Notes: generated by a model from the letters alone, not told the origin. A DNA stretch of 64,000 nt from Pachysolen tannophilus NRRL Y-2460 (GCA_001661245.1 KV454011.1:960426-1024425), one strand, 5' to 3'. Counted from the stretch's first letter, positions 1,700 through 63,363 are shown. Translations and numbers: made by a program.

Positions 1700-2803
1700 A
1701 TGTTTCCGTCCAAGGTCTATGTATTGGGAGTGGGGAGTATAGGTTGTCTTGTTTCAACGCAGCTTGCAAAGATTTCGGATAGGCAAATTGTATTGTTATT
1801 GAAAGATGAATTAACTTTGAACAAGTTTTTAAATAATGAATCAACTTTAAGATATGAAAATTTGATAAATTTGAGGAACCCAATAATACAAGATTTTAAA
1901 TTTAAAGCTCTTTCAAGTGTTCCTAAGAACCAGTTTGGCAAAGTAGATTTTATTGAAAATTTAATAGTGACTACGAAATCGTATCAAACTTTACGAGGTT
2001 TAGAAAAATTTCTTCCAGCATTAAATAAGAATTCCAAAGTTTTATTTATACAAAATGGACTTGGTGTGATAGATAAATTAAATGAGACCTTATTTCTGGA
2101 TCCAGAGACAAGACCACAATTTTACCAAGGTATAATAAGTCATGGTGCTTTTAGACAGAAAAAATTTGCTGTAAAACATGTTGGACTAGGTGATTTGAAA
2201 ATAGCAGCTCTTCCGAGGACGATTCCAACCTTTAATCAACAAGAAGAATTTGTCAATAGCACTGAATCTGAGCAGAATTTAGTTCCAGATTTTATTCAAG
2301 ATATAATAAAGACACCAATATTAAATGCTCAATACTTAGATTATGAAGATCTCCTTGTAACTCAATATGAAAAATTAATTATTAATTCATGCATAAACCC
2401 AATAACTGCAATATTAGATTCGTTTAATGGAGAATTATTGAAAATTGAAGAAATGTATCCAATTTTCAGCAAGATAATACAAGAATGTATAGATGTATTA
2501 ACGAAATCCAATTTGAATACTATTCGGAATCATCAAAATTTCAACATATTATTAAATAAGGAAAGACTTATCAATGTTGTTTTCAAAGTACTGGAAAAGA
2601 CTTCTAGAAATTCATCATCCATGAGAGAAGATATCAGATCATTGAATGAAACAGAAATAGATTATGTAAATGGCTACGTTGTTGAATTAGGTAAGAAGTA
2701 CAATGTTTATACACCTTACAACAGACTTATCTGTGATTTGGTAAAGGCTAAATTATCATTAAATGTTTATAGAAATAATGATGCCATTAAGATGACATTA
2801 TGA
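1700..2803 (+). CDS. CBS2: Ketopantoate-reductase-fold (ApbA/PanE) protein at the CBS2 syntenic position
   Basis: KPR motifs GVGSIG, TTKSY, QNG, EKLIINSCINP, SSSMREDI and ETEIDYVNG. Cbs2-like segments IVLLLKDELTLNKFLNNES and IENLIV. Neighbours are MSS116, RKM2 and CAB5. PAN5 is the alternative name. Confidence 0.65.
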   Translation: MFPSKVYVLGVGSIGCLVSTQLAKISDRQIVLLLKDELTLNKFLNNESTLRYENLINLRNPIIQDFKFKALSSVPKNQFGKVDFIENLIVTTKSYQTLRGLEKFLPALNKNSKVLFIQNGLGVIDKLNETLFLDPETRPQFYQGIISHGAFRQKKFAVKHVGLGDLKIAALPRTIPTFNQQEEFVNSTESEQNLVPDFIQDIIKTPILNAQYLDYEDLLVTQYEKLIINSCINPITAILDSFNGELLKIEEMYPIFSKIIQECIDVLTKSNLNTIRNHQNFNILLNKERLINVVFKVLEKTSRNSSSMREDIRSLNETEIDYVNGYVVELGKKYNVYTPYNRLICDLVKAKLSLNVYRNNDAIKMTL

Positions 2804-4243: not shown

Positions 4244-4984
4244 ATGCTAATTGTTGGATTAACTGGAGGCATCGCATCGGGAAAAAGTACAGTCTCAACA
4301 AGGTTATCATCGACTTATAGTTTGACCGTAATAGATGCTGATAAAATAGCAAGAGAAGTGGTGGAACCAAAGAAACCAGCGTATAATGAAGTAGTCAAGT
4401 ATTTTGAGCCATTAGTTCCAAACTTGTTGAACGAGGATGGATCACTTAATAGACTGGAATTAGGAAAATTCGTCTTTCAAAACAAACAGCATTTGACCAA
4501 GTTAAACTCTATAGTTCATCCTGCTGTGAGAAAGGAGATTTTTATTCGAATACTAAAAGCATGGTTCACATTGAAGAAATTAGTCATATTAGATATTCCA
4601 TTGTTATTCGAAAGTGGAATGGATAAGATTTGTGGATTAACGTTGTTGGTATCATGTCCTAGAGAATTACAATTGCAAAGACTATTGGAAAGAAATCCAG
4701 AATTGACATTAGAAGATGCTGAAAATAGAATCAGAAATCAAATGTCCAACGAATTGAAGATACTGAAAAGTGATAAAGTCTTGAAAAATGACCAGGATTT
4801 AAAAAATTTATATGACCAGATAGAGACTGTATTGAAGGAAATCACACCGTCAACTTTCAAGACTTATCTCTATGCTTTCATTCCTCCAGTAGGGGCATTA
4901 GCAGCTGGAATTACTGTGCTTGTTAGATATTTTAAAAATCAGTTTGCAAACAAGAACGAAATTAAAAAGATTGAATATATATAA
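4244..4984 (+). CDS. CAB5: Dephospho-CoA kinase
   Basis: ATG at 4244 gives MLIVGLTGGIASGKST (P-loop), then IDADKIAR, LNSIVHPAV, LDIPLLFE and a hydrophobic C-terminal tail. The track's 58-aa N-terminal extension is spurious. Confidence 0.93.
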   Translation: MLIVGLTGGIASGKSTVSTRLSSTYSLTVIDADKIAREVVEPKKPAYNEVVKYFEPLVPNLLNEDGSLNRLELGKFVFQNKQHLTKLNSIVHPAVRKEIFIRILKAWFTLKKLVILDIPLLFESGMDKICGLTLLVSCPRELQLQRLLERNPELTLEDAENRIRNQMSNELKILKSDKVLKNDQDLKNLYDQIETVLKEITPSTFKTYLYAFIPPVGALAAGITVLVRYFKNQFANKNEIKKIEYI

Positions 4985-5067: not shown

Positions 5068-8000
5068 TCACCTTTTCATAAAATCTTCTTCTACGATATT
5101 TGACTTTTGACACAGTTCTTGGAAAATTCCTCCATTTAGATTGAATAAGTTCCAAGGTGTGTCAAATTCTCTTACTGCACCTTTATCCAAGACTAGTATC
5201 TTATCATAGTCAAGAATAGTCTTTAAACGATGAGCAATACATAATATGGTACAATGACCAAACTCTTTTACAATTGTATCCTGAATCTTTGCATCTGTCT
5301 CATAATCAACAGATGATGTTGCTTCATCCAAAATTAATATTTTTGAATTCCTAACCAATGCTCTTGCCAAGGCAATCATTTGCTTTTCACCCAAAGAGAA
5401 ATTTGAACCATTTTCTTCTACAACTTGGTCTAAATGGAACTTATGCAAGTTTTCATTGTTATATTCCTGTCTCTTAACCTGATCCAACTGATTATACTCG
5501 ATAACTCCACTTCTTCTAAGTGCTTCCCATAATTTATCATCTTCTTCTTGGACAAAAGGGTCCAAATTCTCCCTCAATGTGCCTTGTATTAATACAGGAT
5601 CTTGAGGAATGATAGATAACTTGGACCGTAAAGTTTTTAAGCCTAGCCTGCTAATGTTTATATCATCAATGAATATATCACCACCATTGAGCTCACATAA
5701 TCTATATAAAGCAGTGGTTATAGAAGATTTACCAGCACCTGTTCTTCCACATATACCGATTTTCTGACCCGGCTTAACTTCAAAAGTTATACCATTTAGA
5801 ACATGAGGCAATCCTGGTCTATATGCCATGTAGACACTGTTAAAGATTATACCTCCATTCTGTGGCCATTCTGATGGTGGTGTAGTTTCTGTAATTTCAG
5901 ACGGAGCTTCTTGTGGTAAATCATAAGCATAGTCACATAATCTCTCTACAGAATTGAACAGATTATTTACCAGAGTATAAGATTTTATCAAAACAGCCAA
6001 CGATCCAGAAATCTGCAAAACGTACGACGTTAACAATCCTACCCCTGCAGAACTAATGTTGAAAGATTTGGTTGCACATAGCAACGTAATGATTAAGACA
6101 AAAAATGAGCCGACTGTATGTAAATTAATGGCTAACCATCTTTGATTGGCAATACTAACATAATATGCTTCGTTCATTTTGTCAATTAATCTGTTGTTTT
6201 TGTTTAAAAACATCGATTCGGCATTATAAGCTTTGATTGTATCCATACCAGTCAAAGTTTCGTTGAAATTGTTATACACAAATGATCTCTGGATGGATTC
6301 GATTCTCTTAATTTCACTAGCTGATGCCGAGTAAAAGTTAGCGCAGGTCAAGTAAAAACCAACTAAGAATGGAACAGCAATTGCAAACCATGGTAAGTAG
6401 ACAATACACAATATAATTATACCTATGATACTTGAAAATGAAAATACAAGAATTCTCGCCTGCTCTGCCATCTCGTTATCCAAAACATCTGTATCTTTAG
6501 TGAATCTATTCAAAACTTGGCCCATCGGTGTTGTATCCAAAAACCACATTGGTGTGTGTAAGATTTTCTTTAAAGACATTATATTTAAATTCTTTGATGC
6601 TCTATTAGTAATGTATGCTAACATGCAAAACTCAAGTAAAGTCAATATAACTGTAACACATGTCAACATAACGTAGATGCCAATGTAAAAAGCATTTGAC
6701 TTTGGAAACTTCGAAGTTGTCCAGTATGATAACCAGACATTTGTGAATAACTGAGCAAATGTAGCAAGAGCGGTTATCATTATGAATAAGGGGAATGCTG
6801 AATATCCAAATACACCAGAACCGAGATTAATATATCTACTGAAGACTTTCAATTTTATCCCATTCGCACCTCTACTTTCAGCTTTCGTTAATCTTCCATC
6901 ATTGATTTCTTTATTATAATTTTCATTTTGGATTGTCTGCTTTTTGACTAATTTATTGTCTTGTTCTAACTCATCTTCTAACTCACCCTCTTCATTTTGT
7001 TCAGAATCTTTGATTTCCGTATTAAATTCCATCAATTTCAAAAAATTTGGATTCGTCTCTTTCAATTCATCAACAGTTCCTACACTTGCTGTTCCATCAC
7101 CATTTAAAAAAATGACTCTATCAGCAGATCTAATTAATGATAATTGATGAGTTGCTAAAACCCTAGTGCTATTTTTCAAGAGTCCGTCTAAACAATTGTC
7201 CATGATATGCTTACCAACTCTAGCATCTACTGCACTAAGTACATCATCCAACAAGATTATATCCTTGTTAGCATACACTGCTCTTGCTAAACTTATTCTG
7301 GCCTTTTGGCCACCAGATAAAGTAATTCCTCTTTCTCCAATTTCAGTTCTATCGCCATTTGGTAGCATGCTCAAGTCACTTTCCAAAGAACATGCATATA
7401 TGATTTCTTTATACCTAGTTTCATCATATTTCTTGCCAAACAAGATATTATCCTTGACTGTTGAGTTTTGAATCCATGGATAGCCACATAATAACAATGA
7501 TCCATTTATTTCCACAGAACCTTCTATCATGTTCATGAAACCTGCTAATGCATTTAAAAGTGATGATTTACCACTACCTACTAAACCAGTAACAATAATA
7601 AATTCTCCTTTTCTAATCTTTAAATTGATATTATTCAAGCCTGGGAAAGCTGTTTGCATTAAAGAATCAATGGAGTTTCTGGTTTGTAATTTGATGTCAC
7701 TTTTGTTATTTGCATTTCTCTTGAGTGATAACTGTCTTGTAAGTTGTTGTTCCAACTTTGCAATTTCTTGAATCTTCCTCTCCTCTTTTTGTTCGTTTGT
7801 TTCAAAATTTTCCCATTCAAAACTTGCATTGTTCGCTTCAATAGCAACATTTTGATCATTTTCAGGATAATCCTGTGGAGTATCATTGTTATGTTCATGA
7901 CTGTCAGTCACCTCACCACTCTGCAAATACTGTCTAATTCTGTCTAATCCTATAAGACCATCTGCAGTTGTGGATAAAGCCAAGGGTAAAATAGTGATTT

Positions 8001-9384
8001 GCTGAGATAACACATTGAATAATGTTAGAGATGTAAATATTTTTGCATTACTCTTTAATCCATCAACAGCGTATAATACTAAGAAAGCAGCTAAAGATGA
8101 TATGACAGGTAACGAAACAGCAAGAGCAGTAACAAAATTTCTTAAAACTTGCATTTGGAATATAATATTCATTTCCTTGGATCTAATGGAAGAAATATTA
8201 TTGTGAAGCGATTCTTGCCAAGAATAGTATTTAATTATTTTCAAATTGTTCAACAATTCTTTAATATGATTTACTCTACCATCGGTAAAGATATTAGCTT
8301 TCTTCCTAAAAGCCAATAATCTTCTTGTTGTATATGCAATACCACAAGTGAGGATAATAAATACCCCCATTCCAGTTAGTGAAGACGGTCCAATATTACA
8401 TATAAGTAAAACTATTGTAATTACAACAGGGACAGGGAACGTTATAATAAAAGCCTGATATCCTAAAGCTAAATCGATTCTAGCTAAATCAGTCCCCATA
8501 AGAGCTGTAATTTTCCCACATGGGAAATCATGTTTTGCCTTGCCATTCAATTTAAAAGATTTATCAAGTAAAACTTTTGTCAATACAGCTTTTATTTGAG
8601 CACCCAAGAGAGAAGCATCATGGAAATAATGAGTTAATAAAAGACCTCTAATCCATACCACCACAGTACAGCCTATAGCGTAACCTATACCTTTCAGGAC
8701 CGACTGATTAGAATCCAAAACTTGCATTTCAACAAAGTTAATTAAAGCTTTAGAAAGTAAAGGATTAAGTGAAATCGCAATATCTCCCGTTGCCTTTAAA
8801 GCTAAACTTTTCAAATATTGGAATTTAAAAGTTTGAAATAAAGACAGTAACACAATATTTTTTGGAAACAGAAAATCTTCAAACTCGGGATTAATTTCCA
8901 AATTATCTAGTTTGAATAAATTAAGCTCATTTATTTCTATATTATTAATTTCCAAGTATTCTCTTTTGGCCTTATCTACTCTTCTATTGAACTCTTTATA
9001 AAATTTTCCAGTCATATATTCAATAGTCAATTCACCTTCAAGGTAATATAAATCGTTCGGCTCAATAGTTCTCTTATATCCTGTAATCATCAAGGGCATT
9101 AACCACCAAAAAAAAGTTCTCGAGATCACATTTGCTTTATACATGGGATAAGGCTGTCTTTCTTCAATTGATGTTGGAATAGGAGCAATTTTGTCTTTCC
9201 CAAAGATAAAACTGAAAAACCTTTTCTGAGGTTTTATTTCCAACTGTTGTTCACTATCCACAGTAACATCATTAGCTGATATATAAGAAGAACCAGTATC
9301 TAAATCGGATGAACCACTAGTCAACTTAACCTCCTCTTCAACCTCAAATTTTTCAAATTTACTACTATCTTTCTCATTATCCAT
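5068..9384 (-). CDS. YOR1: ABCC/MRP-family ABC transporter, oligomycin-resistance type
   Basis: TMD-NBD-TMD-NBD layout. NBD1 has GLVGSGKS and LSGGQKAR; NBD2 has GRTGAGKS and NFSLGEKQ. Yor1-type segments FWWLMPL..GYKRTI and HKFHLDQVVEE. Confidence 0.88.
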   Translation of the reverse strand: MDNEKDSSKFEKFEVEEEVKLTSGSSDLDTGSSYISANDVTVDSEQQLEIKPQKRFFSFIFGKDKIAPIPTSIEERQPYPMYKANVISRTFFWWLMPLMITGYKRTIEPNDLYYLEGELTIEYMTGKFYKEFNRRVDKAKREYLEINNIEINELNLFKLDNLEINPEFEDFLFPKNIVLLSLFQTFKFQYLKSLALKATGDIAISLNPLLSKALINFVEMQVLDSNQSVLKGIGYAIGCTVVVWIRGLLLTHYFHDASLLGAQIKAVLTKVLLDKSFKLNGKAKHDFPCGKITALMGTDLARIDLALGYQAFIITFPVPVVITIVLLICNIGPSSLTGMGVFIILTCGIAYTTRRLLAFRKKANIFTDGRVNHIKELLNNLKIIKYYSWQESLHNNISSIRSKEMNIIFQMQVLRNFVTALAVSLPVISSLAAFLVLYAVDGLKSNAKIFTSLTLFNVLSQQITILPLALSTTADGLIGLDRIRQYLQSGEVTDSHEHNNDTPQDYPENDQNVAIEANNASFEWENFETNEQKEERKIQEIAKLEQQLTRQLSLKRNANNKSDIKLQTRNSIDSLMQTAFPGLNNINLKIRKGEFIIVTGLVGSGKSSLLNALAGFMNMIEGSVEINGSLLLCGYPWIQNSTVKDNILFGKKYDETRYKEIIYACSLESDLSMLPNGDRTEIGERGITLSGGQKARISLARAVYANKDIILLDDVLSAVDARVGKHIMDNCLDGLLKNSTRVLATHQLSLIRSADRVIFLNGDGTASVGTVDELKETNPNFLKLMEFNTEIKDSEQNEEGELEDELEQDNKLVKKQTIQNENYNKEINDGRLTKAESRGANGIKLKVFSRYINLGSGVFGYSAFPLFIMITALATFAQLFTNVWLSYWTTSKFPKSNAFYIGIYVMLTCVTVILTLLEFCMLAYITNRASKNLNIMSLKKILHTPMWFLDTTPMGQVLNRFTKDTDVLDNEMAEQARILVFSFSSIIGIIILCIVYLPWFAIAVPFLVGFYLTCANFYSASASEIKRIESIQRSFVYNNFNETLTGMDTIKAYNAESMFLNKNNRLIDKMNEAYYVSIANQRWLAINLHTVGSFFVLIITLLCATKSFNISSAGVGLLTSYVLQISGSLAVLIKSYTLVNNLFNSVERLCDYAYDLPQEAPSEITETTPPSEWPQNGGIIFNSVYMAYRPGLPHVLNGITFEVKPGQKIGICGRTGAGKSSITTALYRLCELNGGDIFIDDINISRLGLKTLRSKLSIIPQDPVLIQGTLRENLDPFVQEEDDKLWEALRRSGVIEYNQLDQVKRQEYNNENLHKFHLDQVVEENGSNFSLGEKQMIALARALVRNSKILILDEATSSVDYETDAKIQDTIVKEFGHCTILCIAHRLKTILDYDKILVLDKGAVREFDTPWNLFNLNGGIFQELCQKSNIVEEDFMKR

Positions 9385-20260: not shown

Positions 20261-21391
20261 TTAAAGTCTTTTAATAGGTCCACCTGGAGATTTTTTATTT
20301 CTTCTTGTCAAGACTTCAACACCATCTTCAGTCACCAAAAGCATATGTTCGAATTGTGCTGAAGGTTTACCATCACTTGTAGAAGAAGTCCAATTATCTG
20401 GCCATGTGATATCTTTATAAGAACCCATTGTTATCATTGGTTCTATAGTGAAGACTATACCTGGTTTAGCTACACCAATAGCTTTATTTCTTGCGTAATG
20501 AGGAATGCTTGGTTGACAATGGAAAAGTTGGTTTGTACCATGACCACAATAAGTTCTAACTACTTGACAATGGTTTTTCCTTGCATGTTCTTCTATAATT
20601 TCACCTATATTTCTAAAAATTAAACCTGGTTTAACTTTTTCTATAGCAAGATCAAGACATTCTCTCAGTGTTTCAACTAAATTTACAAGTTCTTTATTTG
20701 TCTTTGATGAATCACCAACATAATAAGTTTCATTTAAATCAGCATGAAATCCATTTTTATAGATAGTAACATCCAAATTAACAATATCACCATCTTTTAA
20801 AGGTCTCTTATCTGGAATACCATGACAAATAATTTCATTTACAGAAGTACATACTGATTTGGGGAAATTATAATAATTTAAAGGTGAAGGATATGCATTT
20901 CTTTTTATAGTTTCATTATGAACAATTTCATCAATCTCATCTGTTGTAATACCAGGTCTAATCAGTTTTGCTGCAGTATCAAGAACTTCTCTTGCTAAAG
21001 ATCCAACTTTCCTAATTTCTTTAATCTCTTCCAGAGTTAAGATTTTTATCTTATTTGTTCTATCATTTTTAATTTCACTAATTGGTTCACCAGATAATGC
21101 ATAATCAGGAAGTTTAATCCTCAGTGGAACCTTACGCCGTGCCGATAAAGGATAAAAAGCTTTCAACTCACCTCTATAAACAAATTCCGGGAATGGATCA
21201 TATGTTTCTGAACCTTCTTTCTTATGAATAAATTTATGTGTTGGCCATGAGCGCTTAAAACAATCTTGATCACAAAAAATCGATATAATACCTTCCTTAA
21301 GACATATGGGACATTTTAAAGCAGAATCTGTTTCCTTACCACAATCATTAGCCTCGCATCTCACTACCTCGCTATCCTTGGCCTCAGACAT
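20261..21391 (-). CDS. MAP1: Methionine aminopeptidase 1 with N-terminal zinc finger
   Basis: CPIC..FCDQDCFK zinc finger; motifs SVNEIICHGIPD, DLNET, YCGHG, FTIEPM and SAQFEH. First ATG is at 21391. Confidence 0.96.
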   Translation of the reverse strand: MSEAKDSEVVRCEANDCGKETDSALKCPICLKEGIISIFCDQDCFKRSWPTHKFIHKKEGSETYDPFPEFVYRGELKAFYPLSARRKVPLRIKLPDYALSGEPISEIKNDRTNKIKILTLEEIKEIRKVGSLAREVLDTAAKLIRPGITTDEIDEIVHNETIKRNAYPSPLNYYNFPKSVCTSVNEIICHGIPDKRPLKDGDIVNLDVTIYKNGFHADLNETYYVGDSSKTNKELVNLVETLRECLDLAIEKVKPGLIFRNIGEIIEEHARKNHCQVVRTYCGHGTNQLFHCQPSIPHYARNKAIGVAKPGIVFTIEPMITMGSYKDITWPDNWTSSTSDGKPSAQFEHMLLVTEDGVEVLTRRNKKSPGGPIKRL

Positions 21392-21513
21392 AATCTCACA
21401 CAAAATTCGATTCAATTAAATTAAATTCAATTTAAATTATATTCAATTAAATAACTCATCAAACTTTATCTTTTCTGTACTACATACAAAAAAACTAAAA
21501 ATTTTTTTCATTT

Positions 21514-21558
<45 letters not shown>

Positions 21559-24972: not shown

Positions 24973-25174
24973 ATGAAGAAGGATTTCACCCTGCTTATGA
25001 TGGAACAAAACTATCCAAGCCAAGTTTTGGCATTTTGGGATAATAATAAACCTTTAGATGGGAAAGAAAATAAGAAACAGGTACAGAACCAGTTTCAGCA
25101 ACAGCAACAACAACAAATTTTACATCAACAGTACCTTCAACAACAACTATTACTTGAACAGCAACAGCAACAGC

Positions 25175-25214
<40 letters not shown>

Positions 25215-25384
25215 TCTTTTGCCTACTAACTTTAATTTATCAGATAGTTCATCGAACATTAATATACTTGGAAATTCGAATAGCCAAATTCCATTTTATA
25301 CCTTCAACTCAAATAAATCAACTAATAATACCCAACCCCCACTTAACAGTTTTTACTTTCCACTACAGCAACAGCAACAACAGC

Positions 25385-25421
<37 letters not shown>

Positions 25422-26211
25422 GCTGGTGCAGCAATTTCAACATGATAACCAACTAATTGCAACTTCTCAATCTTTACCCAATTACAATTTGGATTTACCA
25501 GCATCATCAACAGAACCAGCAGGTTTAGAATTTATTCAAGCCAGCCTGAATATTTATAAATCTGACGGAAAACCATTCAACTATACAATGAAGGTTGAAG
25601 AAGCACCAGATTCAAGTGGATCTTTAAACTCTCAGAAACAGTTACAATCCACATATACAACCCCAATTTCTGGATTTCCAAATTTAAATTGGGTTCAAGC
25701 AGGAGTTTCTGGAGTTGACATTACTGGATCTTTGTCAACACCACAAGAAAACTCGATATTAGAAATCCCAGACCCAACAGCTTTTATCCCAACAGTTGAA
25801 AGCAATGGAGTTAAATATAGAACTACAAGAGCAAACTCATTAGATGCTTTCAATATAGCCATGAATGCAAATTTTAGAAAAAACAACAAATCTTCAAAAG
25901 CTTCATTATCTCCAGCTTCTTCAGAATCAAGCTTCACTTCTGGAAGTCAAAGTGGAGGAAACTATTGTGATAAAAGAACAAGCAAGAGATCAAGAATGGG
26001 ATGTTTGACTTGTCGTCAAAGAAAAAAGAGATGTTGTGAAAATAAGCCAAGATGTGAAGAGTGTGCAAGGCTAGGTTTGAATTGTGTTTGGCCAATTCCA
26101 GGAACAGAGCATAAGAATAGATCCAAAAACAACAAATTTGGTCACAATGAAATGGTTCATAGTGTCTACGGAAATATCAAGATATTGAGGGGTATCATTG
26201 AAAAAAATTAA
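24973..26211 (+). CDS. CZF1: Zn(II)2Cys6 transcription factor with C-terminal zinc cluster and poly-Q N-terminus
   Basis: KRSRMGCLTCRQRKKRCCENKPRCEECARLGLNCVWPIPGTEHKN and terminal GNIKILRGIIE closely match the C. albicans Czf1 C-terminus as I recall it. Confidence 0.82.
25093..25422 (+). repeat. CAA/CAG trinucleotide tracts encoding poly-Gln in CZF1
   Basis: Two long (CAA/CAG)n runs near 25159-25212 and 25366-25422, plus a shorter run upstream. Confidence 0.95.
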
Positions 26212-27848: not shown

Positions 27849-27920
27849 GCCATCCTAGTATAGTGGTAAGTACACCTCGTTGTGGCCGAGGAAACCCAGG
27901 TTCGATTCCCGGGGATGGCA
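27849..27920 (+). tRNA. tRNA-His (GTG), no intron
   Basis: Acceptor stem GCCATCC/GGATGGC, anticodon arm CCTCG-TTGTGGC-CGAGG, T-loop GGTTCGATTC, and a downstream T-run as Pol III terminator. Confidence 0.97.
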
Positions 27921-31533: not shown

Positions 31534-32070
31534 TTAAAACTTCATCAAGTGTGGTTTATCACCATGTTTGAGTGAAAATGAAGAAGCCAAATATTGCTTC
31601 AACAATGGTGTCTTTTTAATCTCATTGATCAAAGCTTTATCAACATTTTTCTGATCTTGAATTCTTTCTGCTTTGATTTCCTTTTTTTCAACTCCTTCAC
31701 CAAAAAATTTCTTTTCTGATTTCTTAGTTTTTTTATTATTACCTTGTTCTTTGGCAAAATATTCACCATTAAATTTCTCTAAATCCAACAGAGAAATATC
31801 TAGCCTTGTTGAAGTTGCAATGACATATCTTGCATTAACTCTTCTTAATGGAACACCATTGATCTTGAAAGGACCCGAGACAAGTAAAATGTTATCTTGT
31901 AAATTTTTCAAATAAACAACTCTTTTACCTCTAAATCTACCAGCCAATAAAATTAAAATAGTTCCTGGAGTAATCGATTTCCTCAATTTAGATGGCCTAG
32001 CAGATTTTCTAGCTTTCTTTGGAACTTGAGCATCTTCCGATTGATACCATTTTGGAGGTTCTGTTGACAT
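31534..32070 (-). CDS. RPL6: 60S ribosomal protein L6 (eL6)
   Basis: Motifs [51 protein letters not shown] and GDKPHLMKF. Confidence 0.97.
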
Positions 32071-32442
32071 CTTTAAAGCAAGATGAGTTAGTTGCCTTCA
32101 CTAACGAAAAAAAAGGAGGAAAAAAAAAAAAGGTACAAATACAATAACTTAGAATAACTATATAAAAATAAAAANNNNNNNNNNNNNNNNNNNNNNNNNN
32201 NNNNNNNNNNNNNNNNNNNNNNNNNNNNNNNNNNNNNNNNNNNNNNNNNNNNNNNNNNNNNNNNNNNNNNNNNNNNNNNNNNNNNNNNNNNNNNNNNNNN
32301 NNNNNNNNNNNNNNNNNNNNNNNNNNNNNNNNNNNNNNNNNNNNNNNNNNNNNNNNNNNNNNNNNNNNNNNNNNNNNNNNNNNNNNNNNNNNNNNNNNNN
32401 NNNNNNNNNNNNNNNNNNNNNNNNNNNNNNNNNNNNNNNNNN

Positions 32443-32911: not shown

Positions 32912-34858
32912 TTATTCTATACCCCTAACGACTACCCCTATATCATAAATTTGGCCTTTATGATCCCAAACTCCTAAAGCAGGTATATATTCCAGGGAGA
33001 GAGTTTCTTTGTGGTTTATTTTATCGCAAAGATTTTGTGTGAAAAGTATTGGGGTACTGTAAATTGTAAAATGTAAATTTTCATCTTCATCGAATAATTC
33101 GTATAATGCATCAAGTTCACCACTATTTTTGAAAAATAAAGTTGAGACTATGTAATTTCCATGGAATTTAATTAATGAATCTTGAGAGTTCAATTTTTCA
33201 GAAATAATTATTTGGGCGGTTTCTTGTTCTTCCTGGTTTTCATCATAATTATCTTGATCTTGGAAATTTTTATAGCTTAAACCTCCCCATTCAACAATTG
33301 CAGATGCAGGTAAATTTGTTACTTTGACTATGATTAAATTTGTTTTTTCTCTATTTTGTTGATATAACCCCCATGTTTTCAAGACATTTTTCAAGATATA
33401 ATCTTTTGTTATGAATGCTGTTATAGACAAGTTTTCTTGCATATTTATCAAGTTTTTAACAGAATCAAGGTGTTGCAATGACAAGACAGTTGATAATTTG
33501 CAATCATTGCAAATTAACATTGATGACGGTATCAACGGGATTTGTCCACTTAAGGTAGCAATTCCATTTTCAGCATCTATAATCGATTGGGAATAGGGTC
33601 CAATATTAGAAGGAGCCCAATAACTCCGACTTTGTATATGAATACCTCTCTTGGTTGTTAATGACTTCAAAACAGTTACTGATAATTGTAAATATGTGTT
33701 TTTTGGTAATATAGTTTCAATGCATATTCTGGAAGGAGGTAATGGTTTTTGGAAAAATTTTTTATAGATTGAATTTATTTGAGCAAAATTATCTATAGAT
33801 GATAATAAAAGTTGTGAACTCTGAATGTTTTCAAATGACAAATGGTATTTTTTCAAAATAGTTGACAATGTTTGAAAAATGTCCAAAACTTGTGATTCCA
33901 AATCTGGTTTCATAGATGTTAAGTTTGAAATGAAAATTACATTGCTAATTTCCTTTATCTTACTTTCTAGAGTTGTAACTTGGATCGAGTCATAAATAAC
34001 TTTCTCATTCTCAGTAATTTCTTCATCATCTAATTGATCAAATATATCTTGAAAATTTTCGCTCAAAACATTTGGTATTGTAACATGATTTTCCCAATCT
34101 TTAATCTCTGTGGGATTTTTATCAACTACTTTAACTTTTAATTTTAAATAATAAACATCATCATAGTTATCGCCATCTTTACATATTAAAGAATCAATAA
34201 TCTCCAATTTTTTTTTAAGGAAAAAAGGAGCATCCAAGACAATAGTTTCAAATTCACCACCTTCACCACATATATGAACGTCATATTTCAGATTTAAATC
34301 AACTAACGCAGGTAAAACTTGACTAATAGATTTCCCAAGATGCTTTTCATTCAACCCAATAGCAGCTACTTTAACTAATCTTGCATCTAAACCAGACAGA
34401 CACATCTCAGTCATCAACTCCAATTGATTCCTTTGCCACAAATACGATAAAGAAACTAGTCCCAATCTTTGACATACATCTTCAACTCTAGTCCTTTGAT
34501 ACGAGGAAAGTATTGCACCAACGCTCACAGCTTCTAAATCCGGATGTCTTGATTTCACCAAAGATAACAATTTGAACAAGTCTTCAATTTCATCATTTTC
34601 CGTCTTTGAATATTCTAATGCCTGATTCGTAGAGCTACCAACAATAGGCTGTCTATATAAGGGGACTTCACATAATTCTTCATAATAAGATATAATGTCA
34701 TGGCCCACAGTTTGGAACATAAATGAATCTAATTCATGCCGAGATTGATCTAATGGAAATAAGTTCCCAAGACAAATTAGTTCATGACCGTTTGCCAAAC
34801 AATGTAGAATATTGAAGAACGAATCCTTACCACCAGAAATCAATCCCACAAACTTCAT
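32912..34858 (-). CDS. DPH6: Diphthine-ammonia ligase with C-terminal RidA/YjgF domains
   Basis: Motifs LISGGKDS, DSFMFQTVGH, GAILSSYQRTRVE, CGEGGEFET and HIQSRSYWAPSNIGPYSQ. Confidence 0.96.
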   Translation of the reverse strand: MKFVGLISGGKDSFFNILHCLANGHELICLGNLFPLDQSRHELDSFMFQTVGHDIISYYEELCEVPLYRQPIVGSSTNQALEYSKTENDEIEDLFKLLSLVKSRHPDLEAVSVGAILSSYQRTRVEDVCQRLGLVSLSYLWQRNQLELMTEMCLSGLDARLVKVAAIGLNEKHLGKSISQVLPALVDLNLKYDVHICGEGGEFETIVLDAPFFLKKKLEIIDSLICKDGDNYDDVYYLKLKVKVVDKNPTEIKDWENHVTIPNVLSENFQDIFDQLDDEEITENEKVIYDSIQVTTLESKIKEISNVIFISNLTSMKPDLESQVLDIFQTLSTILKKYHLSFENIQSSQLLLSSIDNFAQINSIYKKFFQKPLPPSRICIETILPKNTYLQLSVTVLKSLTTKRGIHIQSRSYWAPSNIGPYSQSIIDAENGIATLSGQIPLIPSSMLICNDCKLSTVLSLQHLDSVKNLINMQENLSITAFITKDYILKNVLKTWGLYQQNREKTNLIIVKVTNLPASAIVEWGGLSYKNFQDQDNYDENQEEQETAQIIISEKLNSQDSLIKFHGNYIVSTLFFKNSGELDALYELFDEDENLHFTIYSTPILFTQNLCDKINHKETLSLEYIPALGVWDHKGQIYDIGVVVRGIE

Positions 34859-43745: not shown

Positions 43746-45056
43746 ATGTCTGGTAGAAAGTGGGTAGATAAAAAGAAAGATCGGACTTATGCTCTTGTTC
43801 ACCGTTCGCATGAAGATCCTTTGTATTATGATGGAGATGCATCGGAACGTGTTTTTGTTCCTGTGAATAAGCATAAAGATAATAAGAAAGGAAGTAAGAA
43901 TATAAGGTTAGAGACCACAAAGGATTTGGCTGTTGAGTTGGAAAATGAGAAGATAAGAGAGAATGAAGGTGAGGCAGCCTTGTATGGTATTACATATGAT
44001 GATTCCAGTTATGATTATATGCAGCATTTAAGACCTATAGGAAATAACGATGGTATATTTATAGCTAAGCAAGAGGCTCAAGATGAGGGAAAGAATAGGT
44101 CAAGGCATAAAGATATTGTATTGAAAAGTAATGCTGAGGAATTAATACCTCAAGAACTGTTGCCTTCGAAGGAAAACATGAAGATTGATTATCAAAATAT
44201 GCAAAATATTCCGGATATGATTTCTGGGTTTAAACCAGATATGGATCCAAGGTTAAGAGAAGTGTTGACAGCTTTGGACGATGAAGCATACCTTGATGAA
44301 GAACACGACACAGATGATAATGATATATTTGCTGATTTGTTGAAGGAAGGACCGGCACAAGAAGGTGAGGAGGATGTACAAGATTTTGATGAGTGGGATA
44401 TGGATAACTATGAAGATGAATATAAAGATTATGATTCCGATAATGAAAACAACAAGGGAGCAGCTGAAAATTGGCAGGATGATTTTAAAAAATTCAAGAG
44501 AGATCAGAAAAGAGGGAAAATAGTGAATGATTGGGATAGTGATGATGATTTTGGTTCTGATGATGATGACAACGAAGAAGAAGAAGAAGATGTATTACTG
44601 CAATTACCAGAAATTAAAAACGCTGCCAGTAAGAAGAAATCAAAGGCCAAGGAAAGGAGGAAGAAAGGTGCCTTGACAGATACATCGTCTTTTTCTATGT
44701 CATCTTCAGCACTATTCAGAACAGAAGGTTTGAGGATAATAGATGATAAATACGAACTAATGGCCAAGAAACAACTGTTGGACAATGACTCTGAACACAG
44801 CGAACAAGACGAAGAATACCAGCCATTTGATATGGCTGCAGAAAGACTGGATTTCGAAGTCATGTTGGACGATTTCTTGGAAAATTACGAATTAGAAGGA
44901 AACGGTAGAAGATTGGTCAAGAAAAATAATGAAATCCAACGTATAAAAGATGCTGCAGACAGTGTATCCAAATCAAAACTTGCCGCTAGAAGGAAAAAAA
45001 TCAAAGAAGAAAATGTCGATAAACTCACTTCAGGCATAAATAGCTTAAAATTCTAA
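43746..45056 (+). CDS. LTV1: Pre-40S assembly factor Ltv1
   Basis: Motifs LVHRSHEDP, EGEAALYGITYDDSSYDYMQHL, DPRLREVLTALDDEAY and FSMSSSALFRTE. First ATG is at 43746. Confidence 0.95.
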   Translation: MSGRKWVDKKKDRTYALVHRSHEDPLYYDGDASERVFVPVNKHKDNKKGSKNIRLETTKDLAVELENEKIRENEGEAALYGITYDDSSYDYMQHLRPIGNNDGIFIAKQEAQDEGKNRSRHKDIVLKSNAEELIPQELLPSKENMKIDYQNMQNIPDMISGFKPDMDPRLREVLTALDDEAYLDEEHDTDDNDIFADLLKEGPAQEGEEDVQDFDEWDMDNYEDEYKDYDSDNENNKGAAENWQDDFKKFKRDQKRGKIVNDWDSDDDFGSDDDDNEEEEEDVLLQLPEIKNAASKKKSKAKERRKKGALTDTSSFSMSSSALFRTEGLRIIDDKYELMAKKQLLDNDSEHSEQDEEYQPFDMAAERLDFEVMLDDFLENYELEGNGRRLVKKNNEIQRIKDAADSVSKSKLAARRKKIKEENVDKLTSGINSLKF

Positions 45057-57351: not shown

Positions 57352-58284
57352 GTAAAGTTCAATGAGTTTATTTACTACTGTAACCATCATAGAATCCTTC
57401 GATTATAGCGTATAATCCAAGAGCACCTGGATCTGGTAAACCGCCTTCTCTTCTAAGTTCTTTTTCATCGACATATGAAGCTCTACCAAATTTAGCTTTC
57501 ATATTTTTTGTACTTTCTGCTCCTATTCTTGCAGCATGTTTAGCTTTAGCGAAATCACCATTTGTATCATAAAAAGTATCGATAAATGGTTGCAAAGTAT
57601 CAATAATTGTTCTATCACCTATTCTTGCTCTTGTATATTTGAATAATGAGTTGAGAGCTTGTTTCAAGGCTTCTTGCATACTTCCATCATCATTTGAATG
57701 TCTTAAAGAATGTGCTAAACTTGAAATGAAAATTGAATATAATCCACCAGAAGTACCACCCATATTACTTTCAACTATATCTGTAATTTGAACTAAAGAT
57801 TGAACAATATCTTCAGTTTCTAAAGATTTGTCAGCAATTGCTTTTAAAATTGCATTAGCACCACTTGCTAAAGTTTCTCCACAATCTCCATCACCAGTTA
57901 TAGTATCATAATGTGTGAGTTCAGATTCAACTTCCAATACAGCTTTCATACCTGATTTTAAGATTCTAATGTATGAATCAGGATTAACTTTTTTATTTGA
58001 TTTAGCATTATCATAATGGAATGGTGTTGCCTTTACGAAAATTTCTTCATCTTTTCTCTTTGGATCCCAAGAAGTGAAATGAGAATTCCATGCAGGAGCA
58101 TCAGTAGGCAGGTCCAATAATTCTAGTACTTCATCACCTCCAGCCTGGGTTGCATTCAATAAAGTAATGCTAAAACCATCACCATTTAAAGAAGTTGTGA
58201 AATGGCCACAATAAACTCTAACTGGTTTAATTTTATAACTTGAACTTAAATGATCAAGTATAGTTTTACAAATTGTATACATTT
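57340..58284. repeat. Copy of the DAK 3' half (matches about 58410-59354, offset 1070); probable assembly artefact
   Basis: Apparently identical sequence on both sides of the N gap at 58285-58389, each copy starting at the same poly(A) tract. Confidence 0.9.
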
Positions 58285-58437
58285 NNNNNNNNNNNNNNNN
58301 NNNNNNNNNNNNNNNNNNNNNNNNNNNNNNNNNNNNNNNNNNNNNNNNNNNNNNNNNNNNNNNNNNNNNNNNNNNNNNNNNNNNNNNNNAAAAATAAAAA
58401 AAAAAAAAAAAAAAAAAAAGTGTAAAGTTCAATGAGT

Positions 58438-60204
58438 TTATTTACTACTGTAACCATCATAGAATCCTTCGATTATAGCGTATAATCCAAGAGCACCTGG
58501 ATCTGGTAAACCGCCTTCTCTTCTAAGTTCTTTTTCATCGACATATGAAGCTCTACCAAATTTAGCTTTCATATTTTTTGTACTTTCTGCTCCTATTCTT
58601 GCAGCATGTTTAGCTTTAGCGAAATCACCATTTGTATCATAAAAAGTATCGATAAATGGTTGCAAAGTATCAATAATTGTTCTATCACCTATTCTTGCTC
58701 TTGTATATTTGAATAATGAGTTGAGAGCTTGTTTCAAGGCTTCTTGCATACTTCCATCATCATTTGAATGTCTTAAAGAATGTGCTAAACTTGAAATGAA
58801 AATTGAATATAATCCACCAGAAGTACCACCCATATTACTTTCAACTATATCTGTAATTTGAACTAAAGATTGAACAATATCTTCAGTTTCTAAAGATTTG
58901 TCAGCAATTGCTTTTAAAATTGCATTAGCACCACTTGCTAAAGTTTCTCCACAATCTCCATCACCAGTTATAGTATCATAATGTGTGAGTTCAGATTCAA
59001 CTTCCAATACAGCTTTCATACCTGATTTTAAGATTCTAATGTATGAATCAGGATTAACTTTTTTATTTGATTTAGCATTATCATAATGGAATGGTGTTGC
59101 CTTTACGAAAATTTCTTCATCTTTTCTCTTTGGATCCCAAGAAGTGAAATGAGAATTCCATGCAGGAGCATCAGTAGGCAGGTCCAATAATTCTAGTACT
59201 TCATCACCTCCAGCCTGGGTTGCATTCAATAAAGTAATGCTAAAACCATCACCATTTAAAGAAGTTGTGAAATGGCCACAATAAACTCTAACTGGTTTAA
59301 TTTTATAACTTGAACTTAAATGATCAAGTATAGTTTTACAAATTGTATACATTTCCAAATTACTAGTACCACCTAAATTATTGACCAATAATACAACATC
59401 ATCTTTACTGGAATCAAATGAAACATAATGCCTATCTTCATCATCTGGAGATAACAAATAAGTTAATAATAAAGAAATTAATTCATTAATAGTTGGGATT
59501 GGTGAGATTCTTCTAACACCGGCTTCATTATGAATACCCATACCAATTTCAATTTCATCTTTACCCAAGAGATCAATGGTATCATCAATATCTCTACCTG
59601 GGATAAGACAATGATCTAAACTAGCACCAATGGTAACAAGATTTTTCACAACTTTTCTACCAACACTTGCAACTTCTTTTAAATGTGAACCTTGAGCAGC
59701 CTTGGCACCCAAGACTTTATGAACCAATGCAGTCCCTGCTAAACCTCTTCTTCCAACCAACCCGTTCTTAGTCTTACCAACACTAACATCATCACCAACT
59801 AAAATCAATTCAATATTTGAATAACCTTCTGCTTTTGCTCTTTCAACAGCTAAACCAAAATGTAATACATCCCCTGTATAATTCTTAACGATAACTACAG
59901 TTCCAGCCTTGGATTCCTTTGCTCTAATACCCGCCAAGATTTGCTTAGTGGAAGGAGAAGCAAAAGTACTACCTGCAACTGCAACATCCAACAAACCATT
60001 CCCAACAAATCCAGCATGAAGCGGTTCATGACCAGAACCACCACCAGCTAATAACATCACTTTATCCTCCGAGGACTCGGCATTATAGCAGACTCTTTCA
60101 TCTAGAATACATCTCAATAAAGGATTGGTTCTAGTTAAACCAATCAAATTAGACAAGACAATATCTTCATCTCCGTAATTCCATTGCTTTGTAGAAGGCG
60201 CCAT
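58438..60204 (-). CDS. DAK1: Dihydroxyacetone kinase (DhaK-DhaL fusion)
   Basis: Motifs GGGSGHEP, FASPS, VKNYTGD, GRRGLAG, GMGIHNE, GDGDCG, MGGTSGGLY, GRASYV and PDPGA. Confidence 0.95.
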   Translation of the reverse strand: MAPSTKQWNYGDEDIVLSNLIGLTRTNPLLRCILDERVCYNAESSEDKVMLLAGGGSGHEPLHAGFVGNGLLDVAVAGSTFASPSTKQILAGIRAKESKAGTVVIVKNYTGDVLHFGLAVERAKAEGYSNIELILVGDDVSVGKTKNGLVGRRGLAGTALVHKVLGAKAAQGSHLKEVASVGRKVVKNLVTIGASLDHCLIPGRDIDDTIDLLGKDEIEIGMGIHNEAGVRRISPIPTINELISLLLTYLLSPDDEDRHYVSFDSSKDDVVLLVNNLGGTSNLEMYTICKTILDHLSSSYKIKPVRVYCGHFTTSLNGDGFSITLLNATQAGGDEVLELLDLPTDAPAWNSHFTSWDPKRKDEEIFVKATPFHYDNAKSNKKVNPDSYIRILKSGMKAVLEVESELTHYDTITGDGDCGETLASGANAILKAIADKSLETEDIVQSLVQITDIVESNMGGTSGGLYSIFISSLAHSLRHSNDDGSMQEALKQALNSLFKYTRARIGDRTIIDTLQPFIDTFYDTNGDFAKAKHAARIGAESTKNMKAKFGRASYVDEKELRREGGLPDPGALGLYAIIEGFYDGYSSK

Positions 60205-60552
60205 TTTGCAAATTTAAAGAAAAAAAAAAAAAGAATTCAATTCCAATAGGGTGATGAATCAATGATTTATAAATATAAATATATATATATATTTATAGAT
60301 AGAAAGATAGATAGATAGATAGAAGATTTTATAACCGCCGTTAAATTAAATTGAATTGAATTGAATTAAATTTAACTATATACAAACAAATATTATATGA
60401 AAAGAAATCAAAAAGATATCAACGCATCTATATATATTTGCGCACTAATTTTGTAATTGGACTGGGTTGCATAATGAATGATCTTTTTTGCTTGCAGAAT
60501 ACAGAGAGATCCGACAACAAGAGCCGGTAACCGACACGGTTGCATCGACACG

Positions 60553-60606
60553 TTTTGTGGGGGAGATGACAGTAGCTACATCTAACGATTTTACTATTTT
60601 GCGGAG
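60553..60606 (+). promoter_or_regulatory. Two Mig1/CreA-type glucose-repression sites upstream of DAK
   Basis: TTTT-GTGGGG (60557) and TATTTT-GCGGAG (60601) match SYGGRG with a 5' AT box. Confidence 0.45.
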
Positions 60607-60876
60607 ATCTAGAGCGCCATTGAGTAAGTGAGTAAGTGATTGAGCGGATCAGGCCATTGGAAACCGGCGATTGGCGATTAGCGATAGATAGTTGCGTCAA
60701 TTAATCGATTAAATCAATTAATAAGAGGGAATCTGGAAGATTAAAAATAGGTTCAGGTTTTATTTGTTGCCTTTAATTATGGGCAAGATATTATTATTTA
60801 ACCATATATGTATATTAAAAATATATATATATATATATATATATGTTATATACCATAAGATGCCGTATTTACAATA

Positions 60877-63363
60877 TTAGTTCAATTGTTTCGAAGTCCT
60901 TTTGACAATCTTTAAGATTATGCGTAACCATTTAACAGTCTCATCAAAGTCGAGGTCTTCAATTGCCTCATTTAAGCCTGGTAAAGTTTTAGGTTCGTAG
61001 CCAATGTACCTGTCACTGGCAAGAACGATATGCCTAAACCAAGGTCTATCTTTTAAACCGGGATAATATAAAAAGTTTCTATCGAAATATTGTAATTTCT
61101 TATTAATTCCTTTGATGATAAAATATAGCTTAATTTTTTTCCAAAATGGAAGGTTCGGATTTTCCAGTTGAGCTTCATAAAAACTGGCTTCATTATCAAA
61201 AGAATAAGCAATTGAATTGAATTTGACAATAGATTTCTCAAGTTTCTTTATCAATTTAGATAGTTTTAAAATCTTGTGAGTTTTATCAAGATTACTGTTT
61301 TCATCTACCTGTTTTCCTTTCTTATGGCATTTTGAAATTGATATCAAATTGTTACTACTTGAATATGTGTTTTTAGTAATTTCATCAAGTTTATCATTTT
61401 CTTGCAAATCATCTTTTAAAGATAGCATGATTTGTCTATCTTTCCAATCTTCGGGAATTTTATCAATAGCTTCATCGTAATAATGTTTCAATTTCTCGGT
61501 ATAATCACTCAATCTGAAACCAAGAACTGGTCTTTCAGATAATTGTAAAATGATTGAACCAAGATATTTAGCCATCAAGTTATGATAAACAAAATCTGGG
61601 TCACCGAAATTGGACATCCAGTAAAAAGAATCATAATTTGAATGATAATGATAAATTGAATCAGTGGATCTACGTGCAAACATCATATCAAGTGATGGAA
61701 TACCTAATCTCTCTTGGAAAACGTCGAAATCTGAACAAGCACCTAAATCATGAATAATATCACCCGATTCTTTGACAAAATGTTCATATAAAGTACCACC
61801 TTCTGGATAAGGTAAGTTCTTGGAAACATCTCTAATGAGATTATTTAACAATGGAGAAGAGCTAATGGTCAAGAGAGAACCAATTGCACCAATATCCAAG
61901 TTCAAATAAGCAACAACTTTTTTCTGTAAATCTTTTTCCAAGTATTCGCCAAATTCAGTTGATCCCGATAAACCATATTCTTCACCATCCCATGAAGCAA
62001 ACATTATTGTTCTTTCAGGTTTCCAACCAATTTTCAACAATTCGTTAAAACCACGAATGATCTCAATCATGACGGAACTACCAGAATTGGGATCACCAGC
62101 ACCACCTTTTGTCCAAGAGTCCCTATGGTTTCCCAAGATAATAATCTCATCCTTCTTGTTTCCAACAATAGTTCCATAAACATTCCATAAAGGTGTAATA
62201 TTATAGATTTGATCACTGTACAAATTTAACTTAAAATTAGGATTAGGACCAACATAATAATCATAATCAGGTAAAGCTCCAACCCAATCTTCACCACCAA
62301 TTTTTTTTGATCTTATACCATGACCATTTAATTTGGATAAAATTGGTTTGATCTCTCTATAGCTGATAGTTAATACTGGAATTTCACCAATGGCACCATG
62401 AGGATCTTCTCTTTCAATATTATCACCTTTTGATGGGAAGCCTGGAGTAGTTGGATCACCCGGCTGAAAGGTGATAAATTGAACCGAGCCTCTTTGAACA
62501 CTACTAGGGTTTCTTGCAGGTCCATCGGGGTAAGTTTTATACCCATTCTCAGGAGTTATACCATTATCATCACCAGGATCTAAATAAAGTAACATACCAA
62601 TAGCACCTGCTTCCTGAGCAAATTTTACCTTTAAACCACGAAATATGGCCCCATATCTTGCTATAGTAATTTTACCCTTAACATCAACACCTTGAGACAG
62701 TAATAATTCAAAATCTTTCTTAGTACCATAATTGACATAAACATATTCCGCGGTAACGTTACCGTTTGCACCATATACCAAGAAAGTTGGAACTAATCCT
62801 TCTCCCGTAGTAGTTACATCTTGTTCCAATTGGTCTTCCTTCAAAGAAGGCTTATAAACCACTTCATCAACCTCTTTATCACTCTTAGTAGTTTTAATCA
62901 ATTTTAAAGATTGCTCATTTGGATAGCTGACGTAAACGTCATAATCATCAATTTCAGTTTGTAAGCCATATTCTTTAAATTTTTTCTCAGTCCATTCAAC
63001 AAGACCATAATTAGTTCCCAGTAAATGAGGTTCACTAGTATATTTCTGAGACCAATTACCACTTAAATTAGTTTCCAATGCTTTTAAGAAAGTATCAAAT
63101 AATAAATCTTTATCTAAGTTGGAACTAGTAATATGATTAACTGAATTGCCTTTACCTTTAATCAAATTGGTAACAAAATTTTTATTACAATTGCAAGAAC
63201 CAAGACCAAAAAAAATTGGAGAAACCCAATGAAATTGACTGATAATTAAAAATGCCAATGAAAGGCCAATAACTAATTTTGAAATTAAGATTCTCTTCTT
63301 CAGTGAGAAAGAGTTCTTACTGTCTTCACCCGACAATGAGTAATACGGAAATTTTTCATTCAT
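60877..63363 (-). CDS. M28B glutamate carboxypeptidase II / transferrin-receptor-like type II membrane protein (Vps70/Tre family)
   Basis: N-terminal TM helix, PA domain (YVNYG, ARYGAIFRGLKV), zinc/catalytic motifs GNHRDSW, GAGDPNSG, WDGEEYG, YLNLD and YHYHS, then a TfR dimerisation domain. First ATG is at 63363. Confidence 0.92.
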   Translation of the reverse strand: MNEKFPYYSLSGEDSKNSFSLKKRILISKLVIGLSLAFLIISQFHWVSPIFFGLGSCNCNKNFVTNLIKGKGNSVNHITSSNLDKDLLFDTFLKALETNLSGNWSQKYTSEPHLLGTNYGLVEWTEKKFKEYGLQTEIDDYDVYVSYPNEQSLKLIKTTKSDKEVDEVVYKPSLKEDQLEQDVTTTGEGLVPTFLVYGANGNVTAEYVYVNYGTKKDFELLLSQGVDVKGKITIARYGAIFRGLKVKFAQEAGAIGMLLYLDPGDDNGITPENGYKTYPDGPARNPSSVQRGSVQFITFQPGDPTTPGFPSKGDNIEREDPHGAIGEIPVLTISYREIKPILSKLNGHGIRSKKIGGEDWVGALPDYDYYVGPNPNFKLNLYSDQIYNITPLWNVYGTIVGNKKDEIIILGNHRDSWTKGGAGDPNSGSSVMIEIIRGFNELLKIGWKPERTIMFASWDGEEYGLSGSTEFGEYLEKDLQKKVVAYLNLDIGAIGSLLTISSSPLLNNLIRDVSKNLPYPEGGTLYEHFVKESGDIIHDLGACSDFDVFQERLGIPSLDMMFARRSTDSIYHYHSNYDSFYWMSNFGDPDFVYHNLMAKYLGSIILQLSERPVLGFRLSDYTEKLKHYYDEAIDKIPEDWKDRQIMLSLKDDLQENDKLDEITKNTYSSSNNLISISKCHKKGKQVDENSNLDKTHKILKLSKLIKKLEKSIVKFNSIAYSFDNEASFYEAQLENPNLPFWKKIKLYFIIKGINKKLQYFDRNFLYYPGLKDRPWFRHIVLASDRYIGYEPKTLPGLNEAIEDLDFDETVKWLRIILKIVKRTSKQLN

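Follow-up and report, generated by a model that had tools for sequence, protein, structure and literature searches.

We examined how the codon CTG is read in a 64,000-base stretch of the Pachysolen tannophilus NRRL Y-2460 assembly (GCA_001661245.1 KV454011.1:960426-1024425; hereafter, the window), and found that it is decisively not read as Leu in the genes encoded there. Among Leu, Ser and Ala, the residues plausible by tRNA capture, Ala fits CTG best, and we estimate a probability of roughly 0.92 that the window comes from the nuclear genome of a budding yeast belonging to the clade in which CUG encodes Ala (order Alaninales; table 26 of the NCBI translation tables). The 29 open reading frames (ORFs) of at least 150 codons in the window contain 69 in-frame CTG codons out of 15,018 codons (one of the 69 lying in a duplicate copy), as compared with 732 TTA and 450 TTG codons. 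Leu was rejected because of three profile measures and because of the residues that homologous proteins carry at the CTG positions.

The first of these measures was based on orthologue profiles of four proteins. We gathered 119 homologues each for an M28/VPS70-like peptidase (M28), a YOR1-like ABC transporter and LTV1, and 150 representatives for methionine aminopeptidase 1 (MetAP1, gene MAP1), prepared alignments in which CTG was replaced by X, and derived from each a hidden Markov model (HMM) with the query left out. Following the approach of Codetta, log-odds were summed for each codon, with the start codon and columns of less than 70% occupancy dropped, and all CTG sites (18/18) were kept. 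As a control, the standard meaning was recovered for 54/60 other sense codons, with each of the six misses having no more than nine sites; the other Leu codons represented by 13 or more sites (TTA, TTG, CTT and CTA) were all inferred to be Leu by the same method, whereas CTG was not. At the 18 CTG sites, the summed log-odds were 6.1 for Gln, 4.4 for Ala, 3.3 for Thr, -0.4 for Ser and -16.1 for Leu, so that Ala exceeded Leu by 20.4 bits and Ser by 4.8 bits. The mean Leu log-odds at CTG (-0.89) equalled the background of codons that do not encode Leu (-0.96) and was far from the value at Leu's own codons (+1.41), and none of 20,000 resampled sets of 18 true Leu codons scored as low. For Ala, the mean was +0.24 at CTG, between the values for non-cognate codons (-0.34) and for its own codons (+1.28), and when codons not encoding Ala were drawn at random 20,000 times, no set reached the CTG sum. 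The corresponding means for Ser were -0.02, -0.40 and +1.16.

Column counts in the same alignments showed that none of the 18 CTG sites occurs in a Leu-majority column, as compared with 181/286 (63%) of ordinary Leu codons (P = 3.8e-8, Fisher), and that none occurs in a Ser-majority column, as compared with 74/181 Ser codons. The preliminary description of this DNA, which was made from the sequence alone and had proposed that CUG is read as Ala, named CTG columns dominated by Leu or Ser as the pattern that would speak against it, and none of the 18 columns in the four proteins has such a majority; its remark that no CTG occupies an invariant Leu position likewise holds for these 18 sites. Ala made up 10% or more of the column at 6/18 CTG sites, as compared with 224/2181 (10.3%) of other codons (P = 0.007, binomial), and columns with at least 10% Ser were not enriched (3/18; P = 0.36).

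If the standard code applied, CTG would mean Leu and the Ala-like columns would have arisen by chance in an AT-rich yeast in which CTG is rare. Leu would indeed be a conservative residue at several sites, namely codons 180 (W/F/L/Y) and 1424 (M in 118 of 119) of the ABC transporter, codon 733 of M28 (Y/F/W), codon 143 of MAP1 (L 33, A 32, M 14 among the 150 representatives) and codon 298 of a PanE-like protein (I in E. coli PanE), and four Pfam families (Glyco_hydro_81, Slx4, CAF1A_dimeriz and TFR_dimer) scored slightly higher with Leu. Given that CTG is absent from Leu-majority columns, that its Leu log-odds are those of non-Leu codons, that Leu loses 14.6 to 20.4 bits in the three profile measures and that table-1 translations are missing from the public collection (see below), we regard this explanation as scarcely credible.

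For the second measure, genes were translated with tables 1/11, 26 and 12 and scanned against Pfam. This covered 22 of the 29 ORFs, leaving out four without CTG and three without a Pfam family; the sums cover the 20 families in which the translations scored differently and exclude a duplicated fragment of the dihydroxyacetone kinase (DAK) gene. Ala exceeded Leu by 19.2 bits (higher in 15 families, lower in four) and Ser exceeded Leu by 18.0 bits, leaving only 1.2 bits between Ala and Ser. In the third measure, five NCBIfam models (DAK, MetAP1, PanE, CoaE and Dph6) gave differences of +14.6 bits for Ala minus Leu, +12.3 bits for Ser minus Leu and only +2.3 bits for Ala minus Ser; the sites in these models overlap those of Pfam and of the orthologue HMMs, and the figures are thus not independent.

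The margin of Ala over Ser is therefore modest (1.2-4.8 bits), and the sequence of the window would by itself separate the two only weakly. In the orthologue profiles, the 95% ranges for Ala minus Ser were -3.7 to 3.8 for neutral codon sets, -23.4 to -5.9 for Ser codons and 8.5 to 25.1 for Ala codons, so that the value for CTG (+4.8) lies above the neutral range, outside the Ser range and below the Ala range. A reading of CUG as Ser (table 12) would place the window in the Candida/Debaryomyces ‘Ser1’ clade or in the Ascoidea/Saccharomycopsis ‘Ser2’ clade. Ser fits the Pfam and NCBIfam scores almost as well as Ala does, with 9/20 Pfam families favouring it; moreover, Ser is present in several CTG columns (for example, MAP1-90, S 21; LTV1-368, S 14), and the best named matches of M28 and the ABC transporter come from Ser1-clade species (54-56% identity). 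We nevertheless consider the Ser reading improbable, because each of the three measures places Ala above Ser, in one of them by a margin outside the range for sets of true Ser codons, because CTG avoids Ser-majority columns, and because the two most conserved informative columns hold Ser in 0/119 and 7/150 sequences. The public records and the tree described next also speak against it.

The choice of Ala over Ser is settled by public table-26 records, by the position of the window in a tree of LTV1 and by published mass spectrometry of P. tannophilus. In an exact look-up, the table-26 translations of M28, DAK, MAP1 and LTV1 were letter-perfect NCBI/UniRef proteins (4/4), whereas M28, DAK and MAP1 translated with table 12 or table 1 were absent from the public collection (0/3 for each table), meaning that the annotators of this DNA had already applied CUG = Ala. 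A maximum-likelihood tree was built from the LTV1 of the window and a selection of 24 named rows among the 119 homologues, a set that includes no other named Ala-clade row. In this tree, the window is sister (support 90/89) to a monophyletic Leu2 clade of eight rows (100/99), whose members are drawn from Ambrosiozyma, C. boidinii, C. arabinofermentans, Ogataea and Brettanomyces. It lies outside the nine-row Ser1 core (100/100) and apart from Saccharomycopsis, and Babjeviella (Ser1) joins the group formed by the window and Leu2 only at 84/83. A split between an Ala clade (Pachysolen, Nakazawaea and Peterozyma) and Leu2 within the Pichiaceae is described by Krassowski et al. 2018 (PMC5951914), and it is because the tree position matches this split, and because CTG is not read as Leu, that we assign the window to an Ala-clade genome. 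For P. tannophilus itself, Muhlhausen et al. 2016 (PMC4937558) report liquid chromatography-tandem mass spectrometry (LC-MS/MS) in which Ala was read at 97.2% of the 907 CUG positions that had full support, as well as a tRNA-Ala(CAG) that bears G3:U70 and A73. The proposal that CUG is read as Ala is hence supported by the profiles, the public proteins and the LTV1 tree, and the further proposal of the preliminary description, that the window derives from the CUG-Ala clade, by the tree position next to Leu2 and the table-26 form of the public proteins.

A number of observations weigh against this assignment. Gln outscored Ala at CTG by 1.7 bits in the orthologue profiles, and with Thr also close (Gln 6.1 and Thr 3.3 versus Ala 4.4), the window sequence alone fails to single out Ala. 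The Pfam families divide evenly between Ala and Ser (9 versus 9), and the NCBIfam models for MAP1 and DPH6 lean slightly to Ser. Only 1/18 CTG sites falls in an Ala-majority column, as compared with 76/145 Ala codons (P = 9e-5, Fisher), and CTG sites are less Ala-like than GCN codons (mean log-odds 0.24 versus 1.28). Columns led by a hydrophobic residue occur at 5/18 CTG sites (M28-21, L; M28-733, Y; ABC-180, W; ABC-1424, M; MAP1-143, L), and four CTG sites of the ABC transporter stand in for nearly invariant G, Q, E and M residues. No tRNA(CAG) was seen in the 64-kb window using ARAGORN, with and without introns, or Rfam. The exact matches mirror the code that the annotators chose and are not an independent experiment, and the tree represents one gene, with its key branch under the 95/80 support mark.

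A reading of CTG as Gln was rejected. The high Gln score seems to stem from a small number of columns rich in Q (ABC-1138, LTV1-138 and LTV1-368), and we know of no capture of CUG by a Gln tRNA. It would also run counter to the expectation, set out in PMC4937558, that only Leu, Ser or Ala tRNAs capture CUG. For these three reasons, we discounted it.

The majority of CTG sites fall in columns that are variable or led by residues other than Ala. Two further explanations were considered. In the first, decoding would be mixed, with CUG read mainly as Ala and a share of it as Leu or Ser, similarly to the stochastic Ser/Leu decoding of Ascoidea asiatica. The low resemblance of CTG to GCN (0.24 versus 1.28 bits per site) and the hydrophobic-led columns would fit such decoding, and dual decoding of CUG is documented in another yeast (PMC6041473). 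However, the mass spectrometry of P. tannophilus (PMC4937558) puts CUG at 97.2% Ala, weak conservation is what young, re-emerged codons are expected to show, and mixed decoding is a property that DNA sequence is unable to show; we consider it very improbable. The second explanation, prompted by the same weak Ala signal and the same 5/18 hydrophobic-led columns, is that CUG is not a pure Ala codon, with residual Leu-like decoding, or that the CTG population is unusually young and expanding. Young CTG codons would have arisen by single-base changes from CAG, ATG, CCG, GTG and TTG, even at near-invariant positions of the YOR1 paralogue. We hold this to be about as improbable as the Ser reading.

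The preferred reading, in which CUG is an Ala codon, would involve the following series of events. The ancestral Leu tRNA for CUG would have been lost in the Ala clade, and CUG would have been captured by an Ala tRNA with anticodon CAG and the G3:U70 and A73 identity marks, as proposed in PMC4937558. The old CTG-Leu codons would have vanished, the present CTG codons would have re-arisen where Ala is tolerated, and every CTG in the genes of the window would be translated as Ala. Re-emergence at Ala-tolerant positions would explain why CTG shuns Leu columns and yet is less conserved than GCN Ala codons. At the level of the tRNA and of peptides, the proof comes from this literature rather than from the window.

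At 7/18 CTG sites, the residue found most often in the homologues is Q, M, P or L. The codons CAG, ATG, CCG and TTG/CTN each lie one base from CTG, and the raw count hints that many CTG-Ala codons may have been born by single substitutions from these codons.

The eight example positions that the preliminary description had listed are all in-frame CTG codons within long ORFs (8/8). Its statement that they occupy Ala or small-residue positions carries weight at only about three of them, and taken alone six of the eight contribute little or nothing. The strongest single sites are M28-115, with no Ser in its column, and MAP1-242, with seven. The M28/VPS70-like peptidase (60877..63363, minus strand; 828 codons; Pfam domains PA, Peptidase_M28 and TFR_dimer) has CTG at codons 21, 115 (63019-63021), 222 and 733. 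Codon 115 lies at an Ala position, as had been proposed, its column holding A 83, P 35 and T 1, with no L or S, in 119 homologues; codon 222 corresponds to K 67, E 16 and A 11, codon 733 to Y 53, F 24, W 18 and H 14, and codon 21 to a variable column. The named P. tannophilus M28 record, P0102, shares 51% identity with the M28 of the window. In MAP1 (20261..21391, minus strand; 376 codons; Pfam M24 and zf-C6H2), CTG occurs at codons 90, 120, 143 and 242 (20666-20668). The column of codon 242 (T 76, A 56, S 7) backs Ala, in agreement with its earlier listing; codons 120 (P 31, E 21, A 20, S 16) and 90 (D 23, S 21, A 17) face mixed columns, and the TIGR00500 scores of MAP1 were 302.4 with L, 307.0 with A and 307.1 with S.

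The DAK gene (58438..60204, minus strand; 588 codons) matches Pfam Dak1 and Dak2, with a TIGR02361 score of 720 bits, and contains a single CTG, codon 342 (59179-59181). Five sequencing runs from two studies contain the stretch of this gene, with no RNA run listed among them. Here the proposed Ala-like position was upheld in part: the corresponding residue is A in E. coli DhaK (LWDAP) and profiles favour A, but H is found in 26vk, the nearest solved yeast DAK, and the Citrobacter enzyme is unaligned at this position. The scores with L, A and S were 354.2, 356.9 and 355.7 for Pfam Dak1, and 720.0, 721.5 and 720.5 for TIGR02361, so that A was preferred by 1.0-1.2 bits over S and by 1.5-2.7 bits over L. 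A comparable case is ribosomal protein eL6 (RPL6; 31534..32070, minus strand), in which codon 94 (31789-31791) is CTG: the position is occupied by a small residue, as had been suggested, but this residue is Gly rather than Ala in the eL6 of C. albicans, K. lactis and S. cerevisiae (Pfam scores L 140.7, A 142.2, S 142.6).

The remaining four examples had been thought Ala-like and turned out to have no weight. LTV1 (43746..45056, plus strand; 436 codons; Pfam LTV) has CTG at codons 138, 285, 344 and 368 (44847-44849). The column of codon 368, the one listed, is variable (Q 21, S 14, H 13, G 12, P 11, A 10), and the other three correspond in 119 homologues to Q 47 and A 23 (138), G 53, P 53 and A 8 (285) and E 76 (344). 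In DPH6 (diphthine-ammonia ligase; 32912..34858, minus strand; CTG at codons 154, 190 and 622), codon 154 (34397-34399) faces N or K in two archaeal homologues, which are too distant to be informative; in PDB pairwise alignments to such distant prokaryotic homologues, codon 190 faces E. The scores of this protein with L, A and S were 126.7, 129.9 and 130.4 for Pfam Diphthami_syn_2 and 171.9, 174.9 and 175.8 for TIGR03679. Similarly, in dephospho-CoA kinase (CAB5; 4244..4984, plus strand), codon 71 (4454-4456) faces R or K in bacterial homologues that are distant and uninformative, and the other CTG, codon 174, faces A in 2/3 of the distinct bacterial sequences shown (Pfam CoaE: L 196.0, A 199.7, S 198.5; TIGR00152: L 200.1, A 202.8, S 201.2). 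The gene labelled ‘CBS2’ in the preliminary description is a ketopantoate-reductase (PanE)-like gene (1700..2803, plus strand) with CTG at codons 133 and 298 (2591-2593); the I found at the latter in E. coli PanE comes, again, from a distant and uninformative homologue (Pfam ApbA_C: L 121.2, A 121.2, S 120.0; TIGR00745: L 224.7, A 227.5, S 226.8).

The YOR1-like ABC transporter ORF (5068..9384, minus strand; 1438 codons) has CTG at codons 172, 180, 230, 1138, 1142 and 1424, four of which face nearly invariant columns among the 119 homologues (230, G 103; 1138, Q 113; 1142, E 110; 1424, M 118). The protein departs from its family at 54/541 columns that are at least 85% conserved, as compared with 6 to 49 departures in four other family members, and only four of the 54 are CTG. 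The named P. tannophilus ABC record P0128 shares 56% identity with the window copy. Because P0128 retains the consensus residue of the family at all four of the conserved positions occupied by CTG in the window copy, the two genes do not look like orthologues, and the window copy looks like a divergent paralogue. A special meaning for these four sites was therefore rejected: they are 4/54 departures of a generally divergent paralogue, with codons 1138 and 1142 located in a locally diverged stretch (residues 1134-1143). The public gene model of the window copy, P0125 (1219 amino acids), begins at residue 220 of the ORF. Since homologues align across 93-98% of the full 1438-codon ORF, the annotated start may be too far downstream.

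The final 915 bases of DAK (304 codons and the stop) occur twice, at 57368-58282 and 58438-59352, identical at 915/915 positions, with 105 bases of N (58285-58389) lying between the copies. The repeat looks like a gap-flanking duplication of the assembly rather than a second gene, and a public protein of 291 amino acids, P0122, is annotated on the duplicate.

The window has a G+C content of 30.0% and contains four runs of N, at 21559-21816 (258 bases), 32175-32442 (268 bases), 43572 (one base) and the position next to DAK given above. The first is located within a 169-codon ORF (21443-21952) and the second directly upstream of the eL6 ORF. According to Pfam, the ORFs are ordinary budding-yeast genes. 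In addition to the ketopantoate-reductase-like protein, dephospho-CoA kinase, YOR1-like ABC transporter, MetAP1, eL6, Dph6, Ltv1, dihydroxyacetone kinase and M28/Vps70-like peptidase, they encode a DEAD-box helicase, Vps34, two Sec1-family proteins, Coq4, Rogdi/Rav2, Spc19, a GH81 glucanase, proline dehydrogenase, Slx4 and Cac1. A Zn(2)-Cys(6) transcription-factor ORF (24973-26211, plus strand; Pfam Zn_clus at residues 343-374) encodes two long poly-glutamine tracts in the N-terminal half of the protein. The sole RNA gene found by ARAGORN and Rfam is a tRNA-His(GTG) at 27849-27920 on the plus strand.

The behaviour of CTG in the window resembles the P. tannophilus code (table 26) as described in PMC4937558, in that Leu columns are avoided by CTG, the best-fitting of the three candidate residues is Ala and the public proteins are in table 26. 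The density of CTG is also of the same order, with 69 in 15,018 codons here and 16,824 CUG codons in 5288 proteins in that report. No difference from that code was found; PMC4937558 describes CUG as lying mostly at conserved Ala positions, as compared with 1/18 Ala-majority columns here, which may simply reflect a small sample with variable regions. The sister relation to the Leu2 (Pichia/Ogataea) clade is shared with the Ala clade of PMC5951914. In the Ser1 (table 12) and Ser2 (Ascoidea, Saccharomycopsis) codes, as in the window, CUG was lost from Leu and captured by another tRNA, and CTG is missing from conserved Leu positions; unlike them, the window fits Ala over Ser, has no CTG in Ser-majority columns, falls outside both clades in the LTV1 tree and is not public in table-12 form. 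Another Leu-box codon reassignment to Ala is the mitochondrial reading of CUU/CUA in Ashbya/Eremothecium, in which the tRNA gained G3:U70 (Ling et al. 2014, as cited in PMC4937558), although that code is mitochondrial and affects different codons, whereas the genes of the window are nuclear.

The CUG-to-Ala code found in the window is already known, as the preliminary description had itself stated: the reassignment was published in 2016 and is used in the public annotation, and the literature likewise covers its tRNA, its proof by mass spectrometry and how far the clade extends (PMC4937558, PMC5951914). What a single 64-kb window can provide is a rejection of Leu by 15 to 20 bits, as opposed to a separation of Ala from Ser by only 1 to 5 bits, and the difference in Pfam bit score among table-1, table-12 and table-26 translations can serve as a quick test of the code. 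The ORF track, translated with the standard or bacterial table, is mistranslated at CTG, as had been pointed out, since 69 positions that the cell would fill with Ala are given there as Leu; protein searches and models built downstream of it should therefore use table 26.

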